DNA from: Mobula hypostoma
Lineage: Eukaryota
Assembly: GCF_963921235.1 (NCBI RefSeq)
Contig: NC_086097.1
Span: 6,572,001-6,636,000 of the forward strand
Direction of reading: 5' to 3'
Length of the DNA: 64,000 nucleotides
A program made the translations under genes and the position numbers. Shown here piece by piece: positions 61,440-63,103 of the stretch (the stretch's first letter is position 1; each line of letters starts with the position of its first letter). Below the pieces are notes generated by a model. It worked only from the letters and a program-made list of their open reading frames with translations, did not search any database and was not told where the DNA came from.

Positions 61440-63103
61440 CAGTTGAAGTCAGACATTTACATACACCTTAGCCAAATACTTTTAAATTCAATTTTTCACA
61501 ATTCCTGAAATTTAATCCTAGAAAACCTTCCCTGTCTTAGGTCAGTTAGGATCACTACTTTATTTTAAGAATGTGAAATGTCAGAATAATAGTAGAGAGA
61601 ATGATTTATTTCAGCTTTTGTTTCTTTCATCACTTTCCCAGTGGGTCAGAAGTTTATATAACTTTGTTAGTATTTGGTAGCATTGCCTTTAAATTGTTTA
61701 ACTTGGGTCAAACGTTTTGGGTAGAAACACTTTGGGTAGCCTTCCACAAGCTTCTCACAGTAAATTGCTGGAATTTTGTTCCATTCCTCCAGACAGAACT
61801 GGTGGAACAGAGTAACTGGTGTAACAGGTTTGTAGGCCTCCTTGCTCGCACACGCTTTTTCAGTTCTGCCCACAAATTTTCTATCGGACTGAGGTCAGGG
61901 CTTTGTGATGGCCACTCCAATACCTTAACTTTGTTGTCCTTAAGCAATTTTTCTACAACTTTGGAGGTATCCTTAGGGTCATTGTCCAGTTGGAAGACAC
62001 ATTTGCGACCGAGCTTTAACTTCCTGGTTGATGTATTGAAATGTTGCTTCAATATATCCACATAATTTTCCTTCCTCATGATGCCATCTATTTTGTGAAG
62101 TGCACCAGTCCTTCCTGCAGCAAAGCACCCCCACAACATGATGCTGACACCCCCATGCTTCACGGTTGGGATGGTGTTCTTCGGCTTGCAAGCCTCACCC
62201 TTTTTCCTCCAAACATAACGATGGTCATTATGGCCAAACAGTTCAATTTTTGTTTCATCAGACCAGAGGACATTTCTCCAAAAAGTAAGATCTTTGTCCC
62301 CATATGCACGTGCAAACTGTAGTCTGGCTTTTTTTATGGCAGTTTTGGAGCAGTGGCTTCTTCCTTGCTGAGCAGCATTTCAGGTTATGTCAATATAGGA
62401 CTCGTTTTACTGTGGATCTAGATACTTGCCTACCTGTTTCTTCCAGCATCTTTACAAGATTCTTTGCTGTTGTTCTGGGATTGATTTGCACTTTTCGCGC
62501 CAGAGTACGTTCATGTCTAGGAGACAGAATACGTCGCTTTCCTGAGTGGTATGATGGCTGCGTGGTCCCATGGTGTTTATACTTGCGTACTATTGTTTGT
62601 ACAGATGAACGTAGTACCTTCAGGCATTTGGAAATTGCTCCCAAGGATGAACCAGACTTGACATCATTTTCTGACCTCAATCTGAAGAAAATTTGTGGGC
62701 AGAACGGAAAAAGCATGTGTGAGCAAGGAAACCTACAAACCTGACTCAGTTACATCAGTTCTGTCTGGAGGAATGGAACAAAATTCCAGCAACTTACTGT
62801 GAGAAGCTTGTGGAAGGCTACTCAAAACGTTTGACCCAAGTTAAACAATTTAAAGACAATGCTACCAAATACTAACAAAGTGTATGTAAACTTTTGACCC
62901 ACTGGAAAAGTGATGAAAGAAATAAAAGCTGAAATAAATCATTCTCTCTACTATTATTCTGACATTTCACATTCTTAAAATAAAGTAGTGATCCTAACTG
63001 ACCTAAAACAGGGAATGTTTTCCAGGATTAAATGTCAGGAATTGTGAAAAACTGAGTTTAAATGTATTTGGCTAAGGTGTATGTAAACTTCTGACTTCAA
63101 CTA
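61440..63103 (-). mobile_element. Sleeping Beauty-like Tc1 IR/DR transposon, rearranged
   Basis: cagttgaagtc terminus; TA at 61438-61439 and 63104-63105; inner direct repeats at 61637-61666 and 62876-62905. Confidence 0.95.
61667..62660 (-). pseudogene. Sleeping Beauty-family DD34E transposase, N-terminally truncated and disrupted
   Basis: KSGSSLGAISK...[53 protein letters not shown]-stop. Confidence 0.93.

Follow-up and report, generated by a model that had tools for sequence, protein, structure and literature searches.

A Sleeping Beauty-Subfamily Element with Two Right Ends and Its Candidate Right-Right Lineage

Sleeping Beauty (SB) is a working gene-delivery tool whose two ends are taught as unequal, with an enhancer on the left. 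The locus described here lies in a window of 64,000 nucleotides, the whole stretch of DNA that was analyzed, and it contains an SB-like element in which a second right end stands where the left end belongs. Such an arrangement raises the question of how it arose. According to the original prediction, which was made from the sequence alone, either a right-right non-autonomous derivative transposed into the site or the left end of an ordinary insertion was converted in place. We examined the architecture of the element and its target, the composition of the internal junction, the relative age of the two arms, and the representation of the junction in contigs from other organisms. Papers are cited by PMC number or DOI, and from portions of their text.

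Architecture of the element and its target site

As predicted, the element is flanked by TA on both sides, at 61438–61439 and 63104–63105; it measures 1,668 bases with both TAs, and the element proper is 1,664 bp long. The features are listed in Table 1. Self-BLAST of the window returned one inverted pair, 61438–61898 against 63105–62671 (88% over 462 gapped columns, E = 4e-171), and found no further copy of the element in the 64 kb. Over gap-free columns the two arms mismatch at 27 of 434 positions (6.2%; 20 transitions and 7 transversions; K2P 0.066). A ~230-bp IR with outer and inner DRs is present at each end of the element. In arm 1 the outer DR begins at 61440 and the inner DR occupies approximately 61636–61665, and both carry private damage. 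Arm 2 reads D-L-N...N-A-T-K-Y-stop, with the stop at 62873–62875 and the IR/DR next to it. Since arm 2 comprises the final 67–68 codons together with their stop and the IR/DR beyond it, it is a right end by construction, and the claim that the right IR/DR and the last ~68 transposase codons are present as an inverted copy was confirmed both by self-BLAST and by this reading. The IR of arm 2 is 94% complementary to that of arm 1 over 223 nt and both are of the 3′ type, while a canonical left IR/DR with its half-DR enhancer is absent from the element. The CAGT end is intact at 61440; in arm 2 the outermost base has mutated (63103 = A; TA-TAGTTG versus TA-CAGTTG). Between 61700 and 61830, arm 1 contains 15- and 11-bp insertions relative to arm 2; they lie within the 3′ end of the transposase and resemble short tandem duplications.

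Table 1. Coordinates of the element, its parts and the flanking LINE within the window
Feature	Position	Strand	Remarks
5′ part of dead non-LTR retrotransposon (LINE)	60405..61439	+	ORF 60405–61109; RT frame enters insertion site
Arm 1, native right IR/DR	61440..61666	-	Directly after transposase stop 61667–61669
SB-subfamily transposase, codon 20 to stop	61667..62659	-	DD34E triad present
Linker	62660..62670	-	E-N-D-V in frame
Arm 2, coding part	62671..62875	+	Inverted transposase codons ~273–340 with stop, catalytic Glu region included
Arm 2, second right IR/DR, where left end belongs	62876..63103	+	Inner DR ~62877–62907
Second TA, target-site duplication	63104..63105	.	TA duplicate
LINE reverse transcriptase frame, 3′ continuation	63106..64000	+	Frame, alignment to second LINE copy

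Minus-strand coding resumes at 62659, which corresponds to residue 20 of the relative P0003, and the N-terminal part enters the Pfam HTH_SB profile (PF25787) at position 20 of 53; 19 codons are therefore missing. PF13358 was also matched, the catalytic domain aligned with SB100X (PDB 5CR4) at E = 1.7e-94, and the spacing from the second D to the E, counted on P0001, is 34 residues. An intact ORF of ~340 aa is absent, and in addition to the 19 missing codons the damage comprises a stop at 62390–62392, a frameshift near 62340, and the two insertions, already mentioned, of 11 and 15 bp in the 3′ part. We rejected an N-truncated autonomous form, as neither the arm nor the linker frame offers an in-frame start. 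The locus is a decayed Sleeping Beauty-subfamily Tc1 element without a left end and without its first 19 codons. The left IR/DR and those 19 codons are gone, as had been proposed, but the replacement was not clean, and a short piece of the 5′ leader was apparently kept. As to the accompanying idea of a step toward a MITE, the element itself, with 1,664 bp, ~94% of the coding sequence and codons 20–340 retained, is too long to be classed as one.

The best N-terminal relatives are 71–89% identical, and among the matches listed all of those with species names come from Oncorhynchus or Salmo. The element at 61438–63105, whose protein reaches 89% identity to salmonid-type relatives and which sits in a genome of cartilaginous appearance, is a candidate for horizontal transfer. 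Runs of four other organisms and skin metagenomes contain 0.16–0.17 of the region's words.

A read-through transcript had been predicted to form a hairpin of ~430 bp, and as a prediction from sequence this is correct. The arms would enclose a loop of 772 bp, and the 434 columns of potential pairing resolve into 407 Watson-Crick pairs, 8 G-U pairs and 19 mismatches, the stem would include six perfect runs of at least 21 with a longest run of 83, and computational folding of the first 1,500 bases gives the long stem. The RNA runs (6 rows marked RNA) contain only 0.06–0.08 of the region's words and are uninformative on expression.

The 5′ part of the interrupted LINE ends in the first TA. When the element and one TA are removed, the sequence reads ...LAKNTYIDTSVQKTG... 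in an open reverse transcriptase frame, and a related LINE copy at 46452–46802 can be aligned to this empty site with no gap at the joint (42% over 83 residues, E = 6e-17); the sole gap in the alignment lies far downstream of the joint. It follows that no target base was lost or gained, that the element inserted cleanly at a TA, and that misassembly is unlikely. Restoration of the host frame on removal was thus borne out, but the frame is that of a dead LINE reverse transcriptase and belongs to no cellular gene, and on that ground a cellular host gene was rejected. The match of the frame to PF00078 is weak (E = 2e-4) and below the curated cut-off. Decayed LINE reading frames fill the 64-kb window, a pattern reminiscent of a cartilaginous fish. 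The stretches 60340–64000 and 44821–46802 are two diverged copies (at the 42% over 83 residues just given) of a single type of non-LTR retrotransposon, one that we take to resemble HERO-type elements, and the LINE at 60340–64000 represents a high-depth family in sequencing run X21, considered below. Elsewhere in the window, at 23674–24207, a ~71-nt unit occurs four times, at spacings of 244, 110 and 109, directly ahead of a LINE fragment.

The compound junction and the age of the duplication

The inverted arm is not joined directly to codon 20, and the original prediction needs correction on this point: a linker of ~10 bp (62661–62670) intervenes, and it belongs neither to the arm nor to the normal coding sequence. 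The minus-strand frame across the junction reads L-R-S-E-N-D-V-K-S-G-S-S. Contigs from control organisms (n = 3) depart from the window sequence behind 62660 and continue into normal coding sequence, which is consistent with 5′ coding alignments in the part of the PMC9777934 supplement consulted; given this agreement, 62661–62670 is not coding sequence. Among the 136 proteins compared, ENDV was found only in the query and in P0051. The latter reads MWKIPENDVMSLE..., a translation that takes in the leader ahead of the start codon; its ENDV precedes a leader-encoded M-S/A-L-E at whose Met many other relatives start. Because of this position in P0051, the linker is most likely a retained scrap of the element's own 5′ leader, an assignment based on one protein and not on DNA. 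For a Pro codon ending in CA, the two joins would have 3 and 2 bases of microhomology, as read back from the protein. That two joins lie so close together points to a switch of template in the course of repair synthesis; two successive deletions, the first of them across a head-to-head pair, would leave an identical product.

Searches for the junction in public collections were negative within their scope. In 241 million metagenome records, all 13 matches to the junction pattern were attributable to chance and shared nothing beyond the pattern with the element. An arm-linker-transposase chimera was not found among 134 distinct relatives from two protein searches (120 listed of 560 matches, plus 28 region matches; lengths of 65–209 aa only). 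The metagenome and protein sources are mostly salmonid or unnamed and offer little reason to contain the lineage. The junction motifs are likewise absent from the PMC9777934 supplement texts consulted, which are alignments of coding sequences and host genes. No transposase relatives were found in viral contigs, plasmid and phage collections contained no match to the element, and bacterial and archaeal genomes yielded 2 distant transposase loci. A distant Tc1-like transposase (35% identity) at L014:3001–3486 lies on a Dehalococcoidia MAG contig, possibly as eukaryotic contamination of the bin.

To date the duplication, we placed four contig sets on 62300–63300 at 82% likeness: run X21 (organism G) and three controls (organisms A–C). 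Polarization used 21 sites, which are every arm-2 row among the 40 listed of 95. The window subfamily is carried by run X21, with the organism G letter present in both arms at 12 of 12 sites that distinguish G from A–C; the window subfamily therefore differs from the three control organisms at all 12 of these listed arm sites. At the 9 sites where arm 2 departs from the organism G majority, arm 1 has the G letter in every case, and the number of polarized mutations common to both arms is 0 of 9. The chance of such a result is 0.04 if the arm was copied after 30% of the element's age and 0.002 if it was copied after 50%. Each arm has drifted by ~3.1%, which equals the value for the 5′ transposase part, where at least 11 of 360 bases (3.1%) depart from the organism G majority. 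Judged by these comparisons, the right-right structure and the insertion are of about equal age. Of the two routes originally considered, a late in-place conversion is disfavored because arm 1 retains the consensus letter at all nine mutated arm-2 sites, and a right-right derivative is favored. Conversion in place while the family was active would leave this same pattern of mutations.

Traces of the junction at other loci

Run X21 holds 0.45 of the region's words. The 8 pieces listed carry 8–15% other letters relative to the window, and none of these 8 gives any sign of the window locus, so that junction sequence in this run would come from other copies. Summed contig depth is noisy and does not represent copy number, and none was derived from it. 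The ratio of depth in the junction bin (62640–62673) to mean depth over the 5′ transposase was 1.37 in X21, as opposed to 0.66, 0.50 and 0.58 in the controls, and the X21 excess over the control medians was 1.96-, 2.45- and 1.74-fold. Measured against the spread among the nine transposase bins, this excess lies outside for two controls and inside for X7 (0.509 within 0.098–0.589). A loose end at 62660 that leads into normal 5′ coding sequence is the largest listed row in each control (198, 178 and 85 contigs). It is not among the 6 rows listed for X21, where 7–15 such contigs would be expected if that run were control-like; a further 1,815 rows exist over all runs. Control contigs with another type of IR diverge from arm 2 at 62879 and 62914, positions that presumably mark the left IR, and neither loose end is among the 6 X21 rows listed.

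The arms themselves are overrepresented in organism G. Depth over the arm coding part relative to the 5′ transposase was 3.6 in X21 and 0.65, 0.65 and 0.85 in the controls, and the X21 value exceeds the twofold ratio expected were all copies like the window element. Across 62742–63081, X21 depth stands at ~275,000, having risen from ~110,000 near 62740. This step hints at an abundant shorter right-end derivative with an arm starting there. At least 107 X21 contigs exit the outer end of the arm into unlike flanks (agreement 0.39–0.43), which shows that there are many insertions, be they right-right or ordinary.

Two joints with X21 depth occur among the 15 listed of 60, each represented by a single contig. 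The first connects 62682 to 62945, a deletion absent from the window element, and the contig must reach at least as far as 62658, across the linker; its shorter side is 25 letters, which is below the 31-letter rule and calls for caution. The second switches strand between 62686 and 63060, as a compact right-right element would. No contig among the pieces listed (8 for X21) bridges the junction by the 31-letter rule. An X21 loose end at 62686 (8 contigs) has a consensus that enters the arm at 62671 from a third, unrelated sequence; its median length is only 14 letters, and one or two contigs may underlie it. Depth, loose ends and one short-sided contig thus point indirectly to the presence of the junction at other loci.

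Origin of the right-right unit and its relation to known systems

We consider it likely that the window element, itself dead, belongs to a right-right lineage that exists in multiple copies, is non-autonomous and was moved in trans. In the founder of this lineage, an inverted duplicate of the final ~435 bp would have taken the place of codons 1–19, the left IR/DR and most of the leader. Two microhomology steps would have produced the join, from the arm to a leader piece of ~10–15 bp and then from the leader to codon 20, and we lean somewhat toward template switching in abortive gap repair over plain deletion across a head-to-head pair as the cause. Having no start and lacking the first part of the DNA-binding domain, the founder would have been unable to make a working transposase. 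It would have kept four DR binding sites, however, and transposase from intact relatives could have moved the right-right unit into TA sites. One such copy would have landed in the LINE of the window, after which its arms would have decayed independently by ~3% each. We infer the repair mechanism and mobilization in trans; the structure, the TA duplication, the intact target and the independent decay of the arms were observed directly. The window copy is dead, and its outer base at 63103 and the DR cores of arm 1 are now mutated. More tentatively, and with slightly less than even confidence, we suggest that, once an SB-type element had entered this lineage, probably one of rays, right-end-only derivatives could have become what is now the commonest form of the family, the 1.66-kb lineage and shorter palindromic offshoots together outnumbering left-right copies.

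The strongest competing explanation is a one-off conversion in place, early, while the family was still active, after which the right-right unit never moved. A normal copy would have been excised or nicked; in the gap repair that followed, the outer DR shared by both ends would have led to invasion of a template at the wrong end, the right one, and 435 bp would have been copied there before synthesis switched back. This route also predicts TA...TA ends, an intact target, arms of the same age as the family and a compound junction, and it fits the laboratory preference for left ends (described in the portions consulted of PMC5224488, PMC8151067 and PMC3952818). It leaves organism G without explanation, however, where there is no drop in depth at the junction and a large excess of right arms, where the normal 5′ loose end is missing among the X21 rows listed, and where a differently deleted contig reaches across the linker. 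We regard it as unlikely on balance. A late conversion or inversion, in which the left end was overwritten with the decayed right end long after insertion, appears highly improbable: inverted ends that share DRs can recombine, and nothing more specific was found in its favor, but donor mutations would have been copied along with the arm, and none of the nine is shared (a result with the chance values of 0.04 and 0.002 given above). A misassembly that joined right ends from two separate normal copies, for which one could cite that no listed piece of the four runs spans the locus boundaries, is scarcely credible when the flanks are two halves of one LINE frame, colinear and gap-free with a second copy, the junction linker is supplied by neither normal copy, and the window contains no N.

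If a mobile right-right lineage is indeed the correct account, two-right-end elements exist in the wild, and the asymmetry of SB ends is either weak in vivo or compensated. Compensation for the missing left end could come from long perfect symmetry or from a few subfamily-specific bases, which bears on vector design. The end-replacement route to non-autonomous elements would also extend from simple-TIR mariners to IR/DR elements. Were right-end-only forms to dominate the family, they would provide a natural counter-example to the need for a left enhancer in efficient SB movement, and another to the suppression of MITEs by IR/DR ends, and the 400-bp hairpins with which they would seed the genome could give rise to RNA that silences the family. 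Should the junction prove unique to the window locus, it would merely be a tidy fossil of gap repair. Our indirect read data suggest that a multi-copy right-right SB element has spread contrary to laboratory expectation. Right-right SB substrates are generally considered the poorer ones.

The window element resembles SB and other salmonid-type IR/DR Tc1 elements in its ~230-bp IRs with two DRs, its TA target and its DD34E triad. It differs in having no left IR/DR, and hence no half-DR enhancer, in lacking a start and the first 19 codons, in its inverted arms of 435–460 bp that include coding sequence, and, relative to the salmonid-type elements, in a host that is apparently no bony fish. In the sections consulted, SB is described from 107 ray-finned fish and one mollusc and from no cartilaginous fish (PMC9777934), and Tc1/mariner expansions are reported in skates and rays (preprint 10.1101/2024.05.27.594570). 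SB TIRs span 44–415 bp in ray-finned fish, and Table S1 of that survey may include comparable long-TIR cases; the 3′ TIR of SB overlaps the ORF (PMC9777934). The half-DR enhancer is assigned to the left IR (PMC5224488, PMC8151067), and IR/DR ends reportedly keep MITEs from forming (PMC5224488). In cell assays a solo right end gave no transposition and a solo left end gave 0.56% (PMC3952818), while SB, too, is described as preferring two copies of one end (PMC4505599). The engineered vector pT3, in which the left TIR is doubled, increases activity two- to three-fold (PMC8151067); it likewise carries the same end twice, and the window element is its natural mirror case. SB autointegration products have an internal inversion, keep both ends, and are joined at TA with duplications (PMC3952818), and this class was rejected for the window element, which lacks a left end and whose junction contains neither a transposon end nor a TA. 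No natural right-right SB element was found in the literature portions consulted, PMC2198921 included.

The closest parallels come from mariner elements. Seven sublineages of Dromar MITEs in Drosophila have long TIRs in which one end is an inverted copy of the other (PMC4161770). In the portions of that report consulted, they are shorter mariner elements, and it is always the 3′ end that was replaced by the 5′ end to give left-left units, whereas the window element is right-right. Replacement of the 5′ part by an inverted 3′ part is described for Rpmar49 and Rpmar17, mariners of Rhodnius prolixus (PMC4678618); no report of it in IR/DR elements was found in the literature portions consulted. 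New here are the compound junction, an arm age close to that of the insertion, and the X21 depth pattern at the junction. Like the window element, Rpmar49 and Rpmar17 are non-autonomous and have long TIRs with transposase homology, and 13 independent copies of Rpmar49 derive from one progenitor (PMC4678618, in the sections consulted). They are simple-TIR mariners of ~920–970 bp, while the window element is a 1,664-bp IR/DR Tc1 with a compound junction and with ends that are functionally unequal in the opposite direction. By analogy, the window element may work like Rpmar49, starting from IR/DR ends in the orientation that is disfavored in the laboratory.
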